Assembly: GCA_044070495.1 (NCBI GenBank)
Contig: JBIPSI010000047.1
Coordinates: 1 to 29,233, forward strand
DNA length: 29,233 bases
Origin: Spirulina sp.
GTDB lineage: Bacteria; Cyanobacteriota; Cyanobacteriia; Phormidesmidales; Phormidesmidaceae
Direction: 5' to 3'
Shown here: positions 8,132-27,866 of the stretch, in pieces
Numbering within the stretch: the stretch's first letter is position 1
Layout of the letters: the number at the start of each line of letters is the position of its first letter
Made by a program: the position numbers and the translations under genes
Notes under the pieces: generated by a model
What the model was told of the DNA's origin: nothing
Databases searched by the model: none
The model's input: the letters and a program-made list of their open reading frames with translations, nothing else

Positions 8132-9508
8132 ATGCGCCTAGTGGCCTACCGCTACCACAGTCTGGGATTAGTACATTCCCAAGACAAGGCCAGCCCTCCG
8201 TTTCCAGCGATCCTGGGGGTTGGGTGGCCCGATCAAGATGTACCGTCTGACACGAAGGTTCAGATCTACGAAGACCACGCCATCGCTGCCGACCCCAGCT
8301 ATCGGCCCCAGCTTGCCCAGCTTCTGGCCGATAACCAACGCATGCCCGCCGATCACCTGTGGGTCGAGAACCTGGCCGACCTGGGGGATAGTCCGGCGGC
8401 GGTGCAGCGGTGTTTAGACGACCTCGCCCAGGCGGGAACCACGGTATGCGTCGGGGGCGATCATCCGCTGATCCTCAACCAAGACCTGCCCCTAAACGAC
8501 ACCATGGCCCTAGCCACCGCCATGCAGGATCAGCAACAGCGACGGCAAAAGCAAGCAGGCCATGCGCGTAATCGGCTCCAGGCGTTACCCCCACCGGGTA
8601 AAGCTCCCTACGGCTATCGACGGGGCCAGGGGCGTTATCTGATCGACCGCACAGCCGCTCCGGTGATTACCGCTTTTGTCAACGAATTTTTGCTCTACGG
8701 TTCCCTGCGGGGGGCGGTGCGCTTTGTGGAAAAACGGTTTGGCAAGCGCATTTCGGTTTCCACTGGGCAGCGCTGGCTTAGCCATCCGGTTTACCGGGGC
8801 GATTTGCAATACCGTGATGGTCAGGTGATTCGCGACACCCACGCCGCCATCATCTCCCGCGACGAATCCGCCCAAATTGATCGCCTGCTGCGCCGCAACC
8901 GCCCCCTCCCCCCGCGCACCGCCGGAGCCCCTCGCTCCCTGGCTGGATTGGTGCAGTGCCACACCTGTGGTAGCCCCATGACCGTCTCCACCACCACCGT
9001 GCGGGGCAAGGCCCAGAGCTATCTCTACCTGCGCCCCACCGCCTGTTCTCAACAGCCCCGCTGCCGCGCCATCTCCTACGACGAGGTGCTCCAGGCCGTG
9101 ATTGCCGACATTTGCCACACCCTGCCCCAGGCCGTCGCCCAATGGCAAACTGCCCGAACCACCGCCGCCCCAATCCCTAATCCCCAATCCCAACTGCAAA
9201 GCCAATTACAGCAGCGGGAATCAGCCCTTAACCAACTTCCTGCCCTGATCGAATCGGGGATTTTGGACGACGAAATCGCCGCCCTGCGCCGCTACAAACT
9301 GCGTGGAGAAATTGCCCAAATTGAACAACAGATCGCCCAACTACCCCCCGTCAACCTGGCAGAATTAGCCCCCTCCGTAGCCCTACCCCAGTTTTGGCTA
9401 GACCTCTCCGAAGCTGAACGCCGCTTCTTTTTCCGCGAGTTCATCCGTCGCGTTGACCTCCATCGCCAGAATGGAACATGGCACATCAACCTCACTTTTG
9501 TGTTCTAG
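8132..9508 (+). CDS. Large serine recombinase-family protein (recombinase domain, Zn ribbon, coiled coil) with degenerate catalytic domain
   Basis: GKAPYGY, WLSHPVYRG, HAAIIS, LAGLVQCHTCG and C-terminal ERRFFFREFI motifs; ATG 8132 preferred. Confidence 0.85.
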   Translation: MRLVAYRYHSLGLVHSQDKASPPFPAILGVGWPDQDVPSDTKVQIYEDHAIAADPSYRPQLAQLLADNQRMPADHLWVENLADLGDSPAAVQRCLDDLAQAGTTVCVGGDHPLILNQDLPLNDTMALATAMQDQQQRRQKQAGHARNRLQALPPPGKAPYGYRRGQGRYLIDRTAAPVITAFVNEFLLYGSLRGAVRFVEKRFGKRISVSTGQRWLSHPVYRGDLQYRDGQVIRDTHAAIISRDESAQIDRLLRRNRPLPPRTAGAPRSLAGLVQCHTCGSPMTVSTTTVRGKAQSYLYLRPTACSQQPRCRAISYDEVLQAVIADICHTLPQAVAQWQTARTTAAPIPNPQSQLQSQLQQRESALNQLPALIESGILDDEIAALRRYKLRGEIAQIEQQIAQLPPVNLAELAPSVALPQFWLDLSEAERRFFFREFIRRVDLHRQNGTWHINLTFVF

Positions 9509-22742: not shown

Positions 22743-23576
22743 CTAGGCGTCGGCGTTGTCCACCAGCAGAGTGACCTCCTGGGGAGAGAGCACCCCATCG
22801 CCGATGATGCCTTTAAAGCTGCGAATGGTTCGACTCCCCCGATCAATGAAGGCTTTTACCCAGTCGCGTACCCACTGCTGCTGTTCCGGGGTCACGGGCT
22901 CGGCGGCGTTGGGTAGGCTGAAATGACCATCCTTGCTGATCTCAAACTGGGTGAGCCAAGGTTGGTCAGGGCGAGACTGCTTCCAGGCATTGGCCACAAT
23001 AATTTTGCCGAGGTATTGGGTAGCCCCATCGCTCAGGTGGTTGAGGGCGGCAATCAGGTCATTGCCACTCACCACGCGACTCCCAGCCGCCGAGTTCCCA
23101 ACCACCGAGTTCCCATCCGCCGAGGGGGCACGGGTTCCTGGAGCAATCGGCGCAGCGGCGGGGGCACTGGCGGCGGGCGGATTCATCGACGCACTGCTGA
23201 GGGTAACGCACCCCGCTAGCAGTCGGAAGGTGGAAACGACATTGTGGGGCTCCTCCATCAGGGTATCGGTGAGCTGGTGGATGGCGGATCGGTAGGCGCT
23301 AAGGGGCATCTGATCCGCCATCAACACCATCAAAATGAGGCCCTGGTCAAGCTTATAGATGTGGACAAACTGATGGGTGAAGCGGAAGGAAAAACTATCG
23401 AACCCCTTCGGAATCGTTTCAATCACCTGTTGAATTCCCTGGGCCAAGGCATCTTGCTGACTCGTATTAAGCTGAATGTCCGGGCCGAGAAAAAACGGAC
23501 GATTGCGACCGTCTATCAGGCCAACCCCTGACAGTCCGGGTAAATTCAGGAAGTTCTGAATAACCTGACGTTTCAT
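22743..23576 (-). CDS. Hypothetical two-domain protein (possible roadblock-like N-terminal domain)
   Basis: FLNLPGLSGVGLIDG start, Ala/Pro linker, helical C-terminal domain; upstream of the ferredoxin on the same strand. Confidence 0.75.
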   Translation of the reverse strand: MKRQVIQNFLNLPGLSGVGLIDGRNRPFFLGPDIQLNTSQQDALAQGIQQVIETIPKGFDSFSFRFTHQFVHIYKLDQGLILMVLMADQMPLSAYRSAIHQLTDTLMEEPHNVVSTFRLLAGCVTLSSASMNPPAASAPAAAPIAPGTRAPSADGNSVVGNSAAGSRVVSGNDLIAALNHLSDGATQYLGKIIVANAWKQSRPDQPWLTQFEISKDGHFSLPNAAEPVTPEQQQWVRDWVKAFIDRGSRTIRSFKGIIGDGVLSPQEVTLLVDNADA

Positions 23577-23773
23577 AAATCCTTGTGGGCTATCCTGCCT
23601 TTTTTTTTCTGGGAGTGTCCCGAAACAAGTAATCTAGGGATGGCAGCCTGATCGACTGAGCCATTTCCCCTAGGCTCCGTTCATCCTGGTGGACTTGCCT
23701 CACTGCCCTGCCCCCTGTACCACCCTGTCTGTTCCTTGGCTGTTCAGCACTACTGATGTTAGGGTCACTGTCC

Positions 23774-24799
23774 ATGTCTGACCTTCCTTTTACCCTCGAC
23801 CAACTGCGTATCCTCAAAGCCATTGCGGCCAAGGGCAGTTTTAAGCGGGCTGCGGATAGCCTCTACGTGTCCCAGCCAGCGGTTAGCTTGCAGGTGCAAA
23901 ACCTAGAGCGCCAGCTCGATGTTCCCCTGTTTGATCGGGGCGGACGGCGGGCTCAGCTCACCGAGGCGGGGCACTTACTGCTCAGCTATGGCGACCGTAT
24001 TCTTAGCCTATGCCAAGAAACCTGCCGGGCGATTGAAGATTTACAAAATCTACAGGGGGGCACCCTGATTATCGGAGCCAGCCAAACCACGGGCACGTAC
24101 CTCTTGCCCCGCATGATTGGCATGTTTCGCCAGAAGTATGCCGATGTGGCGGTACAACTCCATGTCCATTCCACCCGCCGCACCTCCTGGAGTGTGGCCA
24201 ACGGTCAAATTGACCTCGCCATTATTGGCGGTGAAGTTCCTCCCGAATTACAAGACTCTTTAGAAAGAGTGCCCTATGCGGAGGACGAACTCGCACTGAT
24301 CATGCCGATGTATCATCCCTTGGCCAGCCAAGACCTAATTCAGCGGGAAGATCTTTACAAACTTCACTTCATTGCCCTCGATTCCCAGTCCACCATTCGG
24401 AAAGTGATCGATCAGGTGCTCACCCGCTGCGGCATCGAAACCCGCCGCCTCAAGATTGAAATGGAGCTAAATTCCATTGAGGCGATTAAAACCGCTGTGC
24501 AGTCTGGGCTAGGGGTGGCTTTTGTGTCGAACTCCGCCATTGAGAAGGAACTGCAAATGGGCGTCCTCCATCGGGCCAAGATTGACTCGGTGGTGGTCAA
24601 CCGCACCCTGTCGGTGATTTTTAACCCCAACCGCTACCGTTCTAAAGCCGCCGCCGCCTTTACCGAAGAAATCCTGCCTCAGTTCACCAACCTGCCCCTC
24701 AACTTCAAAGCCATCGGTGCCGAGAAAAATGGCACCAAAGCCATGACCCTCGGCGATCTCTGCGATGAGAGCACCCCTAGCCCATCGCCCTCAACCTAG
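23774..24799 (+). CDS. rbcR: LysR-family regulator RbcR/Ycf30
   Basis: [46 protein letters not shown] and NPNRYRSKA are characteristic of Ycf30/RbcR. Confidence 0.9.
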
Positions 24800-24911: not shown

Positions 24912-27197
24912 GTGGAATACTTTTCGGGTCTGCTTGATACCTCATCGGTGGCGCTGCCGCCGGAATATCTTCAATTGGCAGAGGTTCTGGCCCAACAAGA
25001 CCATGGCCGCTGGGGTAATGCGCTGTTGCAGTTGGGCTGGAAGTATGGCCCTCGGTTTGATCCGGTGCGGCAAACCCATCCCCACTTGGTGATCTTTGAA
25101 TCCTTACCGGAGGAGGTGAAGGCGAATAAACGGCGGACGTTTCTAGACAATTTTAAGGTAGTGCTGGCGATGGGCTATCGGCTGGCCACTCACCCCCCTG
25201 CCGAGGATCTGGATCCAGGGGCCAATACCACCCCCAGCCCCCCCTTGCAGGTGCCGCAGCCAGCGGGGGAAAACAGCCCCGCCAATATTCGATTGGCTTC
25301 TCTGGTGGCGTTGCGCAATGAACTGATTACCCTCCAGCCCACCACCCCCGACCTCCACACCGCCCTAGGGGATATGCTGCTTCAGCAGGGGCAGCCGATT
25401 TTAGCCTACGACGTGCTGATGGCAGGGCTGCATCGCTGGCCAGATTATCTGCGGTTGCAGCAGCTTTTGGCCTTGGCCCTAGCCCGCAGTGGGGCCACCC
25501 AGGCCGCCAACCAACTGCTGGCGGAGTTGATTCAATCGGGGCAACGGGACGAGCAAACCCTAGGGCTCTATGCCCGTACCCACAAGGATTTGTGGAAGCA
25601 GACCCGGGATGAGGGACAGCGATCACGGCATTTGACCCTGGCGTTTCAGCAGTACCTAGAAGCCTATCGCCACAGCCGCAGCCTTTGGACGGGGATCAAT
25701 GCGGCCACCATGGCTGTCATGGTGGGTGATCTGCCGTTGGCCCAGAGCCTCGCCGAGGAGGTGCGCCAGGAAAGCCTTGCGGCCCTAACCGATGAGGCCA
25801 TCCACGGCCAGGATCCCTACTGGGTGCTGGCCACCCTAGGGGAGGCAGAACTGATTTTGAACCATTGGGATGCCGCTGCCCAGTACTACACCCAAGCCGC
25901 CCAGTTGGGGGCTAATCGCTACGGCGATCTGAGTTCTAGCTATCGCAATGCGGCCCTGCTGATGCGCCACTTTCACCAAGAGGTGGAGACCCTCAACCAG
26001 TGGTTTTCCTTGCCACGGGTGGCGGTCTTTTGCGGCCATCGGGTCGATCAGCCTAACCGATCTATTCCCCGTTTTCCAGCGATGCTCGAACAGCCCGTCT
26101 ACGAGGCTATCCACCAACGGCTGAAGGCGCTGGGTACCTACGTGGGCTTTGCCTCGGCGGCGTCGGGGGGCGATATTTTGTTTTTAGAAGCCCTGCTGGA
26201 CTTGGGGGGCGAGCTAAACATCGTACTGCCCTACAACCGGGAGCAGTTTGTGGTCGATGCGGTGCAAGATCAGCCCTCCGATCAGGCCACGGATGACTGG
26301 CTGACTCGCTTTAATCGGGTGCTGTCCCATGCGCGGGAGGTGATCATCGCCTCCGACCACAAACCCAAGGACGACGCCATTTCCTACGAATATTCCAACC
26401 GCCTGCTCCACGGGCTGGCCAGTATGCGCGCCCAGCAGTTGCAAACCACCCTCGTGCCCATTGCGGTGTGGGATGGCCAGCCAGGAGATGGCCACGGCGG
26501 CACCGCCCACACGGTGTCCTACTGGCGGCAGTGGAACGACCATGTCGATATTGTGGATCTAGAACCCCTACTCACCCAGCATTGCCCGGATCTGAACCGC
26601 CAGCGCCAGGATCGCCTGCGGCAGACCCCTAACCTTATCCTCGATCCCCCCGATGCCGATGCCCAGCGGGATATCTGCGCCCTACTCTTCGCCGATGTGG
26701 TGCATTTCACAGATTTGAAAGAGGATCAGATTTTGCAGTTCTCCCAAAAGTTTCTGGGAGCGATTGCCGAGCTTTCCGACCCCCTGGCGCATCCGCCACT
26801 GATGAAAAACACCTGGGGCGACGCGCTCTACTACGTGTTTGCCACCGTGGAACAGGCGGGCACCTTTGCCCTAGATCTGTGCGACCTGATGCAAACCACC
26901 CAGTGGGAGCGCTATCACCTGCCAGCGGACATGAACCTTCGCATCGCCCTTCATGCTGGCCCGGTTTACCGCAATGTGGATCCCATTACGGGCCGGGTGA
27001 ACTATGTGGGCAACCACGTTAACCACGCGGCCCGCATCGAACCGATTACCCCCCCTGGCCGTGTCTATGCCAGCCAAGCCTTTGCCGCCATGGCCGCCTC
27101 GGAGAAGGTGCAGTCCTTCACCTGCGACTATGTGGGCCAAGTCCTCTGGGCCAAGCATTACGGATCCTTCCCCACCTACCATGTCCATCGGGTTTAG
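24912..27197 (+). CDS. Multidomain protein: RyR domain, TPR-sensor (MAP3K TRAF-binding-like), SLOG-like domain, class III nucleotide cyclase
   Basis: RyR: LAQQDHGRW...GWKYG...THPHLV..ESLPEEVK...GY. TPR-S: TLGLYARTHKDLW, TGINAAT, YWVLATLGEA. SLOG: FCGHR, ASGGDILF, VWDG...GGTA. Cyclase: LFADVVHFT, TWGDA, LRIALHAGPV, GNHVNHAARIE. Confidence 0.85.
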   Translation: MEYFSGLLDTSSVALPPEYLQLAEVLAQQDHGRWGNALLQLGWKYGPRFDPVRQTHPHLVIFESLPEEVKANKRRTFLDNFKVVLAMGYRLATHPPAEDLDPGANTTPSPPLQVPQPAGENSPANIRLASLVALRNELITLQPTTPDLHTALGDMLLQQGQPILAYDVLMAGLHRWPDYLRLQQLLALALARSGATQAANQLLAELIQSGQRDEQTLGLYARTHKDLWKQTRDEGQRSRHLTLAFQQYLEAYRHSRSLWTGINAATMAVMVGDLPLAQSLAEEVRQESLAALTDEAIHGQDPYWVLATLGEAELILNHWDAAAQYYTQAAQLGANRYGDLSSSYRNAALLMRHFHQEVETLNQWFSLPRVAVFCGHRVDQPNRSIPRFPAMLEQPVYEAIHQRLKALGTYVGFASAASGGDILFLEALLDLGGELNIVLPYNREQFVVDAVQDQPSDQATDDWLTRFNRVLSHAREVIIASDHKPKDDAISYEYSNRLLHGLASMRAQQLQTTLVPIAVWDGQPGDGHGGTAHTVSYWRQWNDHVDIVDLEPLLTQHCPDLNRQRQDRLRQTPNLILDPPDADAQRDICALLFADVVHFTDLKEDQILQFSQKFLGAIAELSDPLAHPPLMKNTWGDALYYVFATVEQAGTFALDLCDLMQTTQWERYHLPADMNLRIALHAGPVYRNVDPITGRVNYVGNHVNHAARIEPITPPGRVYASQAFAAMAASEKVQSFTCDYVGQVLWAKHYGSFPTYHVHRV

Positions 27198-27410
27198 GGC
27201 ACCCTAGGTCAGCGGTGTCTTGCCAGCGGCGCATTCATCGCCGGACTAAGGGCTTAGGGAGGGCTTCTCCTAGGCCACACCCAAGGCGGATATGACGTTC
27301 TGCTGCCATCCCCACATAAACCTTCACCGAGGGGCGTAGAATACATAGGGCAGCTTGCCCCAAGGCCTAATTTGGGGCGTATTTATCCTGTTTTGAGAGA
27401 CGTAGAAACC

Positions 27411-27866
27411 ATGATTATGGGACGGTTTAGACCCCTGCTCGGAATTCTGCTCGCTGTGATTGCCACCACGCTGGTGGCCTGTGGCGGTGGCCCTGCCAGC
27501 AAAGCACCCACCACCTATACCCCGGCGGTGCTGCAACAGGTAGAACTCTACAGCCCTGGGGTGGCCACCCTGCGGGATCGCTTCCCCGAACTTGAGGGCT
27601 ATATTCAAAAGCAAGATTGGGTGAATGTCCAGAGCTTTATCCATGGCCCCATGGGCGAACTGCGCGCCCGCGCCAACCGCTTGGCTGCGACCCTGCTGCC
27701 CAAAGATAAGGAACAGGCCCAGGCCCTTGCCCAGGAACTTTATGTTCACCTAGAGCGCCTGGACGAAGCAGCAGCCAACCGTCAGCAGGTGGTGGCGGGC
27801 CAAGAGTACCGCAATGCCCTGGATGACTTCGATAGCTTCCTGAGCCTAGTGCCCACTTTCCAGTAG
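27411..27866 (+). CDS. psbQ: Photosystem II lipoprotein PsbQ (CyanoQ)
   Basis: Lipobox LVAC; W.NVQSFIHGPMGELR motif; ATG 27411 or 27417. Confidence 0.9.
   Translation: MIMGRFRPLLGILLAVIATTLVACGGGPASKAPTTYTPAVLQQVELYSPGVATLRDRFPELEGYIQKQDWVNVQSFIHGPMGELRARANRLAATLLPKDKEQAQALAQELYVHLERLDEAAANRQQVVAGQEYRNALDDFDSFLSLVPTFQ

Follow-up and report, generated by a model that had tools for sequence, protein, structure and literature searches.

One open reading frame of 761 amino acids in the analyzed stretch of Spirulina sp. DNA (29,233 nucleotides, hereafter the window) encodes, as judged from profile matches and predicted folds, a RyR repeat, a TPR-S region, a YpsA-like SLOG domain and a class III nucleotide cyclase with its catalytic residues. 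We propose, with a probability of about 0.5, that the product is a cyclase that acts as a dimer and is gated by a nucleotide of the ADP-ribose type, and that it is of Thoeris-like TIR descent, the gene standing alone here with any TIR partner and cNMP receptors located elsewhere. The gene and its parts are laid out as follows.

24912..27197, + strand: whole gene, a 761-residue open reading frame with a GTG start, stop codon included
24933..25184, + strand: RyR repeat (residues 8-91), from Pfam, PDB matches, the alignment with phage RyR proteins and a homodimer prediction
25191..25289, + strand: Pro/Ser-rich linker (residues 94-126), predicted to be disordered (pLDDT <50 in the full-length model)
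25293..26003, + strand: TPR array of 13 helices (residues 128-364), from Pfam and the helices of the model
25422..25712, + strand: Pfam TPR-S match (PF20308, residues 171-267)
26016..26582, + strand: predicted SLOG-fold Rossmannoid domain, YpsA-like (residues 369-557), from the model, fold searches and near-invariant residues
26583..26666, + strand: SLOG-cyclase linker, helical and then disordered in the full-length model (residues 558-585)
26667..27191, + strand: class III nucleotide cyclase catalytic domain (residues 586-760), from Pfam, PDB alignments, Foldseek and conservation

The gene is present as a single copy in the genome, and in the alignment its GTG start coincides with the Met at which full-length homologues begin. 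The Pro/Ser-rich linker varies in both length and sequence across the homologues of alignment A1, which has 32 rows (family counts below refer to 63 rows), and the homologues also differ in the length of the SLOG-cyclase linker. The four motif blocks described in the first-pass annotation proved real, with positions within about 60 bases of the domain limits in the full-length model. The RyR, TPR and cyclase blocks gave Pfam matches above the curated cut-offs; the SLOG block was borne out by its predicted fold only, with no sequence-profile match. The annotated absence of a transmembrane segment agrees with a Kyte-Doolittle scan, in which the highest 19-residue mean was 1.47, inside the SLOG core.

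The cyclase domain matched Guanylate_cyc (PF00211) over residues 586-744 with an E-value of 2.4e-10 and 40.7 bits, against a cut-off of 21.9. In a Foldseek search with the full model, it was superimposed on 5oyh with a TM score of 0.78 by target and an rmsd of 2.9. Residues D595, D637, N704 and R708 align with 3mr7; we take the two Asp residues to be metal-binding and N704 and R708 to be transition-state residues. The window protein contains the cyclase residues D595, K632, D637, R677, N704, R708 and K748, of which D595, D637, R677, R708 and K748 are conserved in 59-62 of the 63 family rows. Position 632 is Lys in 47 rows and Arg in 11, presumably as in purine cyclases. However, the spacing between K632 and the metal Asp exceeds that of the aligned cyclase by one residue, and position 704, which is Asn in the window protein and in 15/63 rows, is Ser in 40/63, making both substrate and activity uncertain. 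Based on the fold and these residues, the domain is predicted to be a competent class III cyclase.

The genomic surroundings consist of core genes. The nearest neighbors are a LysR-family gene (23756-24799) and a PsbQ gene (27372-27866); DAO, Fer2, HrcA and other core genes are also present. Of the two neighbors named in the first-pass annotation, psbQ was recovered as such, and the position labeled rbcR is occupied by the LysR-family gene. No TIR, SLATT, cNMP-binding or PADLOC-recognized defense gene was found near the gene in the 29-kb window, which is without a defense-island context. A search for signs of mobile elements around the gene revealed no inverted repeats, and short direct repeats only at chance level; promoter and terminator scans performed no better than on shuffled sequence. 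The order PsbQ-DAO is kept in the genus, whereas the upstream side differs in all seven of the seven relatives examined, so that no clean insertion site can be defined.

A universally syntenic gene behaving as a housekeeping cyclase had been named at the outset as the case against a signaling or conflict role. The gene proved to be neither housekeeping nor universally syntenic: it was found in 5 of 31 genomes of the genus and in 6 of 301 genomes of the phylum (the source genome is counted in both), and in three close relatives it is found in three different neighborhoods. The source genome encodes three TIR proteins elsewhere, and gave 12 cyclase-domain matches and 15 cNMP-binding matches. A TIR protein of 481 amino acids co-occurs with the gene within the genus, an association confounded by kinship since the same genomes are also the nearest by PsbQ identity.

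Homologues were identified at no fewer than 628 loci in species-representative genomes, and neighborhoods were counted at 63 loci (L042, with its ORF outside the target cluster, was left out). This survey, which the first-pass annotation had called for, uncovered TIR partners: a TIR gene directly adjoins the homologue at 20 of the 63 loci and is located within the fetched flanks at 30 of the 63. The TIR ORF is at offset -1 in 13/59 loci and at offset +1 in 7/59, as compared to 7/537 at offsets of 3 or more (Fisher p 9e-11, uncorrected for kinship), an adjacency that could partly stem from defense-island clustering. At least nine TIR protein clusters from six phyla take part, often together with STAND NTPases. 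The partners include TIR alone, TIR fused to WD40/CHASE2, to a kinase, to Sel1/TPR or to BioY, and TIR beside nSTAND1-TPR. In several pairs both genes share a strand and are separated by -40 to 91 bases, TIR_2 matches number merely 2-11 per genome in five host genomes, and the TIR catalytic Glu column is conserved to about 90%. No cNMP-binding domain was detected in the TIR partners at E<=0.1.

Pfam was run on 80 of the 116 adjacent ORFs, the other 36 being either short, or longer with their cluster represented by another locus, and a home-made TIR profile was run on all ORFs. A cNMP-binding protein, a Crp-type regulator, was found in one of the 80 scanned neighbors, 214 bases upstream of the cyanobacterial homologue L010. 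All-against-all clustering revealed no neighbor that is universally conserved among the 63 loci. In fused variants, CHAT or nSTAND1 takes the place where RyR would be; no fused form longer than 1333 amino acids produced a score, which is weak evidence. The idea of a one-gene system is thus modified, in that the fusion of the four modules stands but the signal maker, a TIR protein often accompanied by a STAND NTPase, is a separate gene where the context is informative; a self-contained one-gene system is unlikely. We found no ligand binding, product or phenotype in print for any family member; earlier listings of the architecture are possible. SLOG, TPR-S and their contexts were reportedly defined by Burroughs et al. 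in 2015 and by Burroughs and Aravind in 2020, who may already list the RyR-TPR-S-SLOG-cyclase architecture, and candidate effectors of the cyclase type may appear in the supplements of the bioRxiv Thoeris survey.

The link to TIR is weaker close to home. In the cyanobacterial clade of a quick tree, an adjacent TIR gene was present in 3 of the 27 rows, so that the association with TIR may have disappeared here and something else may now be sensed by the protein. It is possible, although doubtful in our view, that the protein is a physiological, non-immune sensor cyclase in which the cyanobacterial SLOG/TPR-S region senses an endogenous metabolite, such as the NAD+/ADPR level, AMP or another nucleotide, and sets cAMP for routine regulation with no TIR input, the module having been recruited to housekeeping signaling in cyanobacteria. 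The core-gene surroundings with zero PADLOC matches in the window and the missing nearby TIR in 24/27 cyanobacterial-clade rows are consistent with this interpretation, as are the Crp-type regulator upstream of the L010 homologue and the many cyclase-domain and cNMP-binding matches, which are typical of rich cAMP signaling. An "institutionalised" role has also been proposed for the SLOG protein YpsA (available text of PMC6459960). However, a physiological sensor would hardly be expected to be so sparse in its genus and phylum or to occupy three neighborhoods in three close relatives, and the strong TIR/STAND linkage in other phyla and the persistence of the cADPR-binding triad in the RyR repeat also argue against it. 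The ADP-ribose-gated cyclase is our preferred reading.

This reading assigns a sensing role to the three N-terminal modules, which are of kinds known or suspected to recognize NAD-derived alarm nucleotides. The RyR repeat matched PF02026 over residues 8-91 (E 8.2e-17; 61.7 bits, cut-off 27.4). PDB entries of ryanodine-receptor repeats were retrieved with E-values of 1e-73 for a profile of 32 homologues and 7.8e-34 for the domain alone. The available text of PMC13232231 describes phage RyR-domain proteins that bind 2'/3'cADPR with nanomolar affinity or hydrolyze it through H75, W78, H100 and D117. In that account the glycosidase RyDEP has a catalytic H/D dyad (His75 and Asp117), and six of the eight phage homologues assayed bind without cleaving, so that the residues alone are no proof of catalysis. 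The columns of RyDEP H75, W78 and H100 correspond to H31, W34 and H56 of the window protein in alignment A4, where a Mycobacterium phage homologue with the same numbering as RyDEP served as the reference; DyoEdafos RyDEP is absent among the phage matches listed. H31 is present in 32/32 rows of alignment A1, and W34 and H56 in 31/32 each. In the Asp117 column, the window protein has K73, and L001 and L002 have Lys as well; the RyDEP-type dyad is thus incomplete, with Lys for Asp. Within the family, this column is Asp in 32/63 rows, and H-W-H-D is intact in 32/63. The replaced Asp touches the terminal ribose in RyDEP (PMC13232231, available text), suggesting that the RyR pocket of the window protein may take another ligand or none.

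Two copies of the RyR domain, the only part covered by the dimer folding, gave a fold score of 0.57, against 0.01 for the best control. The mark of 0.57 was reached by 20 of 30 proteins solved as same-chain pairs and by 1 of 23 solved as single chains. The homodimer runs agreed in at least 90% of the contacts with a partner pLDDT of at least 83. The predicted interface is formed by the first and last helices, like the one described for the RyDEP dimer; since similar solved assemblies exist, the prediction may reflect memorized structures. The RyR domain thus resembles the phage RyDEP/RyR-domain (PF02026) proteins in its single repeat, predicted homodimer and shared H/W/H columns. It differs from them in that Asp117 is replaced by Lys, and in that it is host-encoded and fused to a signaling enzyme, whereas the phage proteins are free viral sponges or glycosidases.

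The TPR array contains a TPR-S match (PF20308, residues 171-267) with an E-value of 4.3e-19 and 69.4 bits, against a cut-off of 27.6. MAP3K_TRAF_bd (PF13281) also matched above its cut-off, at residues 181-358 with an E-value of 1.1e-9, but the match covers positions 175-353 of 371 only. Membership in MAP3K_TRAF_bd/DUF4071 was rejected since the whole model is not matched. The array corresponds to the second half of this model, which describes the central region of ASK1/MAP3K5, and weakly matched the TPR of ASK1 in a PDB profile search (5ulm, E 0.004); in contrast to ASK1, the first, N-terminal Rossmannoid half is unmatched and the kinase is missing. The half-model match explains why homologues are labeled "TRAFs-binding domain-containing protein" in databases, which, judged from the sequence, is a misnomer for this protein.

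The SLOG block gave zero matches to Pfam, NCBIfam, PADLOC and PDB sequence profiles, both for residues 358-580 at E<=10 and for the whole protein; no curated SLOG sequence model recognizes it, and the family has no curated model. The AlphaFold2 model of residues 355-575 had a pLDDT of 93.4 and a pTM of 0.90. Foldseek retrieved B. subtilis YpsA (2nx2) with this model at an E-value of 3.3e-6, and VIA-align aligned 161 of 178 residues with a Z-score of 17.4 and an rmsd of 3.1. The Z-scores for other matches were 11.7 for DprA, 10.8 for ShosA, 9.7 for LOG and 6.5 for the SLOG domain of ThsA (7uxs). The best 9 VIA-align rows (Z 17.4 to 8.9) are YpsA, DprA, ShosA, LOG-type or Moco-carrier proteins, all of which we take to be SLOG members, TM1055 and TT1887 less surely. 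Based on the model, we conclude that residues 369-557 have a predicted SLOG-type Rossmannoid fold that is YpsA-like.

Both FCGHR (373-377) and GGT (529-531), motifs pointed out in the first-pass annotation, are located in this domain. A GxD loop, G419-G420-D421, precedes helix 419-430, and a second loop is formed by G529-G530-T531. H376, D379, R383, R387, E393, G419, D421 and E426 are each conserved in 58-62 of the 63 family rows (G419 in 61 and D421 in 62). G419-x-D421 fits the GxD/E motif of the YpsA clade, placed where the second helix starts, a predicted substrate-binding signature whose mutation abolishes YpsA function (PMC6459960, available text). YpsA is thus the best structural match and has the loop in common with the window protein. 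It differs in being a stand-alone protein of 178 amino acids tied to cell division and oxidative stress, and its similarity to the window SLOG was not detected at the sequence level in Pfam or PDB profile searches.

The many invariant polar residues of the SLOG domain would fit an enzyme as well as a sensor. We consider it improbable, however, that the SLOG and/or RyR modules are enzymes, LOG-like or RyDEP-like glycosidases, that end or alter an ADPR-type signal alongside cNMP synthesis. In addition to the dozen or so near-invariant polar residues, such a role might be suggested by the N-glycosidases among the SLOG clades (PMC9503650, available text) and by the H-W-H-D set, including the RyDEP dyad, in half of the family rows. 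In contrast, the acid of the dyad is replaced by K73 in the window protein, binding without cleavage prevailed among the phage homologues tested (PMC13232231, available text), and the nearest structure is YpsA and not LOG.

Among known systems, type I Thoeris (ThsB TIR and ThsA SIR2-SLOG) resembles the family in that SLOG is fused to an enzymatic output domain, a TIR gene directly adjoins the homologue at 20/63 loci, and the ThsA SLOG is a structural match. According to the available text of the preprint 10.64898/2025.12.03.692087, 3'cADPR is sensed in type I Thoeris by the ThsA SLOG. The output is a SIR2 NADase in Thoeris but a class III cyclase here, the RyR and TPR-S modules are extra, the window SLOG is far closer to YpsA (Z 17.4) than to ThsA (Z 6.5), and the same-locus TIR gene of Thoeris is missing from the 29-kb window. 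A defense role for the family is putative. The type VIII effector ThsI/BcTpr, with a CMP-hydrolase-like domain and TPR, likewise combines a Rossmannoid nucleotide domain of the TIR/DrHyd/SLOG class with a TPR array, and has TIR neighbors in common with the family. In preprints, this array is tied to TIR signaling and cADPR perception, and the TPR of ThsI has been put forward as the part that perceives cADPR. The order of the domains is reversed in the window protein, with TPR ahead of the Rossmannoid domain, which is SLOG here and MilB-like in ThsI/BcTpr, and a cyclase is added.

The parallel with Pycsar drawn in the first-pass annotation is weak. The window protein resembles PycC in its class III-type cyclase and possible conflict context, but the PycC model of PADLOC matched at an E-value of 0.05, and the single Crp-type regulator among 80 scanned neighbors (1/80) left no adjacent cNMP-binding effector. 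Membership in Pycsar was therefore rejected. A Pycsar-like or reversed cascade, in which the cyclase senses infection and its cNMP (possibly cCMP or cUMP) activates an NAD-depleting TIR, or in which the cyclase is itself an NTP-depleting effector, is very improbable given this marginal PycC match, the sensor-type WD40, TPR, kinase or STAND-linked parts of TIR partners that lack a cNMP-binding domain, and the presumably purine-cyclase-like Lys/Arg at position 632, despite the class III fold and the conserved TIR catalytic Glu. The known TIR effectors in Pycsar contexts, which were left out of the survey in 10.64898/2025.12.03.692087 (available text), would also speak for it.

According to the preferred reading of an ADP-ribose-gated cyclase, the protein would be soluble and homodimeric, and its N-terminal RyR/TPR-S/SLOG region would control the catalytic domain of the class III cyclase. 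The input would likely be an NAD-derived, ADP-ribose-type nucleotide, for example a cADPR isomer or ADPR, held in the SLOG pocket, in the RyR dimer or in both. Once bound, it would bring the two cyclase domains together as an active dimer, so that an ADPR-type signal would give rise to a cNMP, probably cAMP. The family would have originated in Thoeris-like conflict systems, a membership retained outside cyanobacteria, where the neighboring TIR protein, often with a STAND NTPase, would produce the input signal. In Spirulina sp., the input may come from one of the three TIR proteins encoded elsewhere or be an endogenous nucleotide, and the output would be read by the many cNMP-binding proteins of the genome.

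The label "TRAFs-binding domain-containing protein" is misleading across the at least 628 species-representative loci. To our knowledge, all characterized Thoeris effectors kill or arrest the cell directly, by NAD depletion, pores, proteases or nucleotide hydrolysis. If our reading is correct, a SLOG-gated cyclase would instead act as an effector by releasing a second messenger. The signal could then be amplified, reach many cNMP receptors in parallel and elicit transcriptional responses, a design closer to eukaryotic cascades. We tentatively suggest a two-tier cascade, undescribed so far, in which a TIR-made cADPR-type signal is read by RyR/TPR-S/SLOG and converted to cNMP, placing NAD-derived Thoeris-type and NTP-derived cAMP/Pycsar-type signaling in series. 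The host RyR domain would be a cADPR sensor or, in members with H-W-H-D, a signal-terminating glycosidase, and filamentous cyanobacteria may have uncoupled the module from its TIR gene and reused it for cell-to-cell or stress signaling. We know of studies on the phage versions only, as anti-Thoeris sponges or glycosidases, and host-encoded bacterial RyR domains would thus gain a role. The action of cADPR on the repeat domains of ryanodine receptors has long been debated, and a soluble domain of 100 residues would provide a tractable bacterial model for the binding of cADPR isomers by RyR repeats.

The first-pass annotation had proposed a single 761-aa reading frame with four domains, no transmembrane segment and core-gene neighbours. 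The four domains were borne out, RyR, TPR-S and cyclase by Pfam and SLOG by predicted fold, and a LysR-family gene and PsbQ were found as the neighbours. Transmembrane-like hydropathy was absent from every 19-residue window of the protein (highest value 1.47). The GTG start matches the Met position of full-length homologues in the alignment. The Pfam scan returned four families exceeding curated cut-offs, and the remaining boundaries were taken from a full-length predicted model (pLDDT 82.3, pTM 0.76), whose top Foldseek matches were class III cyclases (5oyh, rmsd 2.9). SLOG and TPR-S were reportedly defined in two papers from the Aravind laboratory.

The gene and the domains of its protein
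24912–27197, + strand: RyR-TPR-S-SLOG-cyclase gene, single ORF, 761 aa, GTG start
Residues 8–91: RyR, Pfam E 8.2e-17
Residues 171–267: TPR-S, Pfam E 4.3e-19
Residues 181–358: MAP3K_TRAF_bd, Pfam, profile positions 175–353 of 371 only
Residues 586–744: Guanylate_cyc, Pfam E 2.4e-10
Residues 17–86: RyR helices, model
Residues 94–126: disordered linker, model
Residues 128–364: thirteen TPR helices, model
Residues 369–557: SLOG domain, model
Residues 586–760: cyclase domain, model

In the PDB, a 32-sequence profile matched ryanodine-receptor repeats as well as bacterial entries titled 'putative ryanodine receptor'. A 2026 preprint (PMC13232231) describes phage proteins with a RyR domain that either bind 2'/3'cADPR with nanomolar affinity or cleave it by hydrolysis, the residues used being H75, W78, H100 and D117. 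Alignment of the window domain with three homologues and three phage RyR-domain proteins gave the invariant columns H75, W78, G86, W87, G90, H100, P101 and L109 (Mycobacterium phage numbering); in the window protein, columns H75, W78 and H100 are occupied by H31, W34 and H56. The D117 column is Asp in 32 of the 63 family rows; it holds K73 in the window protein and also Lys in the L001 and L002 homologues. Folding of the RyR domain as two copies passed, scoring 0.57 against 0.01 for the best control. Of proteins solved as one-chain pairs, 20 of 30 attained this score; of those solved as single chains, 1 of 23 did. Contacts agreed by at least 90% between runs with a partner pLDDT of at least 83, and the predicted interface consists of the first and last helices. 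This pass may reflect likeness only, because similar assemblies have already been solved.

One of the three phage proteins, gene 81 of Mycobacterium phage Baudelaire (L098, 275–682, + strand), is a 136-aa RyR-domain protein annotated as 'hypothetical'. It is flanked by NAD-salvage genes (PRPP transferase, nicotinate ribosyltransferase) and carries H75, W78, H100 and D117 in the numbering of the phage protein RyDEP. This gene probably encodes a RyDEP-type anti-Thoeris protein that has escaped annotation.

The SLOG block matched no curated sequence model in Pfam, NCBIfam or PADLOC and had no PDB sequence match. An AlphaFold2 model of residues 355–575, built from 46 sequences, was confident (pLDDT 93.4, pTM 0.90), and Foldseek gave YpsA (2nx2) as the best match (E 3.3e-6). 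Nearly all top fold matches are members of the SLOG superfamily. With VIA-align, the model reached Z 17.4 against YpsA (rmsd 3.1, 161 aligned), 11.7 against DprA, 10.8 against ShosA, 9.7 against LOG, 8.8 against TRPM2 and 6.5 against the ThsA SLOG. Residues H376, D379, R383, R387, E393, G419, D421 and E426 are conserved in 58–62 of the 63 family rows, and E493 in 56. The second SLOG helix begins with G419-x-D421, equivalent to the GxD/E signature that forms the predicted substrate-binding site of YpsA in PMC6459960.

In PDB alignments, D595, D637, R677, N704, R708 and K748 line up with solved cyclases, and all are conserved in 59–62 of the 63 rows, position 704 excepted. Class III cyclases have two metal-binding Asp residues and a canonical transition-state Asn. 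We take D595 and D637 to be the metal-binding pair and position 704 to be the transition-state site. At the N704 column (window nt 27021–27023), 40 rows have Ser, and the window protein is among the 15 with Asn; the K632 column holds Lys in 47 rows and Arg in 11. The residue pattern thus predicts a competent cyclase domain.

The architecture is widespread yet sparse. A homologue search returned 1396 proteins at E≤0.001, named 'TRAFs-binding domain-containing', 'DUF4071' or 'class 3 adenylate cyclase' at source, with full-length homologues (46–94% identity) in filamentous cyanobacteria and Pyrinomonadaceae. Relatives are encoded in at least 628 stretches of species-representative genomes, from phyla that include Cyanobacteriota, Acidobacteriota, Chloroflexota, Armatimonadota, Verrucomicrobiota, Poribacteria and Myxococcota. 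The SLOG domain as sole query matched 3181 cluster representatives at E≤0.001; a domain scan of every second one of the best 150 (75 proteins) found, as counted from the listing, TPR-S in 62, a cyclase in 49 and RyR in 16. Alternative N-termini in this sample included CHAT, nSTAND1 and cyclase+AAA/NB-ARC, and one relative had a C-terminal receiver domain. The phylum draw gave matches at E≤1e-60 in 6 of 301 genomes, and the gene is present in 5 of the 31 genomes of the genus, both counts including the window's own genome (G000), which has one copy. The other genus carriers comprise two full-length genes, one split over two contig pieces and one fragment. The carriers are the nearest relatives by PsbQ identity, so the distribution looks clade-specific, not randomly scattered. 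Three relatives at 85–88% identity hold the gene in three different neighbourhoods, and the window's arrangement is common only to L001 (95% identity), which is not the picture of a universally syntenic housekeeping cyclase.

We called and clustered ORFs in 62 fetched loci and the window; L042 did not cluster and was left out. No universal neighbour was found among the 63 loci. Of the 116 ORFs immediately next to the homologues, 80 were scanned with Pfam; they included many TIR_2/ThsB_TIR proteins, from which a TIR profile was built and run over all 961 ORFs. TIR ORFs were found in 30 of the 63 loci and directly adjacent in 20, so that the survey for TIR partners suggested in the first-pass annotation did find them. 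By gene offset, TIRs occurred at 13/59 positions at −1, 7/59 at +1, 7/106 at ±2 and 7/537 at three or more (Fisher p 9e-11, uncorrected for kinship). Host genomes contain only 2–11 TIR_2 matches each (five genomes examined), and chance adjacency should therefore be well under 1%. The partners form at least nine protein clusters of several architectures: proteins of about 507 aa that always adjoin a 1,400–1,500-aa nSTAND1-TPR gene, proteins of 630–695 aa, and fusions of TIR with WD40 or CHASE2, protein kinase, Sel1 or TPR, and BioY. Conservation at the TIR catalytic Glu position is about 90%, and several TIR genes share the homologue's strand, separated from it by −40 to 91 bases.

Neighbours of homologues in fetched loci
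L026, 3564–8126 and 8132–9652, − strand: nSTAND1-TPR and TIR pair
L017, 9099–9854, + strand: LSDAT-type SLOG gene (LSDAT_prok), 45 bases upstream of a RyR-less homologue
L048, 8160–9605, − strand: NAPRTase (nicotinate phosphoribosyltransferase)
L058, 7632–8180, − strand: Nudix hydrolase

In Acidobacteriota, an nSTAND1-TPR NTPase gene (about 900–1,500 aa) and a 490–550-aa TIR gene adjoin the homologue. The L026-type pair recurs in L027, L031, L033, L035, L045, L047 (on the opposite side of the homologue) and L063, and with the homologue looks like a three-gene system. The L017, L048 and L058 neighbours fit NAD/ADPR chemistry. L010 has a Crp-type regulator as neighbour.

In the window, the core genes comprise His biosynthesis, enoyl-ACP reductase, phosphoribulokinase, ferrochelatase, HrcA, ferredoxin, LysR, PsbQ and a DAO oxidoreductase, and PADLOC gave no matches beyond noise over the 29 kb. 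Three TIR proteins are encoded in G000 outside the window, and the genome has 12 cyclase-domain and 15 cNMP-binding matches.

Further features of the window and of G000
Window, 1522–2079, + strand: phage-integrase-family ORF, 186 aa
Window, 8111–9505, + strand: serine recombinase, 465 aa (Resolvase, Recombinase, Zn-ribbon domains)
Window, 22743–23576, − strand: 277-aa ORF, no Pfam match, Ala/Pro/Ser-rich middle, common only to L001 among fetched loci
L095 (contig C65), 137–1354 and 1697–4483, − strand: T2SSE-type ATPase/class III cyclase fusion and TIR-WD40 gene
L094 (contig C42), 5202–6647, − strand: 481-aa TIR protein

The integrase-family ORF and the recombinase, 15–23 kb upstream of the cyclase-fusion gene, may be mobile-element remnants among otherwise core genes. 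In L095, the ATPase-cyclase gene comes after the 928-aa TIR-WD40 gene on the same strand and is cut by the contig end; this is a second TIR-beside-cyclase arrangement of a different kind. The G000 TIR-WD40 protein shares 36% identity, along its entire length, with one encoded directly after the homologue in a Nostoc genome. The 481-aa TIR protein, whose N- and C-terminal parts are unmatched, has full-length orthologues (71–75% identity) within the genus only in G005, G019 and G043, three of the four other members with the cyclase gene, a suggestive co-occurrence that is confounded by kinship.

These results are most simply read as a fusion protein that would convert a TIR-made ADPR-type signal into cNMP, the RyR/TPR-S/SLOG part reading the signal and the cyclase then making the cNMP. 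We favour this reading because the three modules precede a seemingly competent cyclase, because relatives adjoin catalytically intact TIR genes, and because SLOG, TPR and RyR are each linked to cADPR in known systems. In a type VIII Thoeris effector, the TPR has been proposed as the cADPR-perceiving part; in type I Thoeris the 3'cADPR sensor is SLOG, as stated in 10.64898/2025.12.03.692087. In the window's cyanobacterium there is no physical link to a TIR gene, and the connection may have disappeared; we therefore hold an ADPR-gated cyclase at a probability of about 0.5.

Of the 61 rows in a quick maximum-likelihood tree, 34 fall outside the cyanobacterial clade and have 17 adjacent and 10 nearby TIRs, against only 3 for the 27 rows of that clade. 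The window protein groups with L001, L002 and L007 on a long stem (0.89 changes per site), and its RyR (nt 24912–25217) scores far weaker in Pfam (E 8e-17) than many members (to E 1e-34). The long stem and weak score hint that constraint on the RyR module has relaxed or changed in this subclade. A domesticated metabolite-sensing cyclase is a tentative, rather unlikely alternative, and it is doubtful that the N-terminal modules are enzymes. A Pycsar-like or reversed cascade is very improbable; TIR partners showed no cNMP-binding domain at E≤0.1.

Our literature search found neither a described TPR-S-SLOG-cyclase protein nor a Thoeris-type system whose effector is a cyclase, and an earlier computational listing of either may exist. 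In the available text of the 2025 systematic Thoeris survey (10.64898/2025.12.03.692087), 'cyclase' appears only for ADP-ribosyl cyclase and in a CBASS reference. We rate TIR-SLOG signalling as the known part of the proposed pathway and its second-messenger output as the new part.
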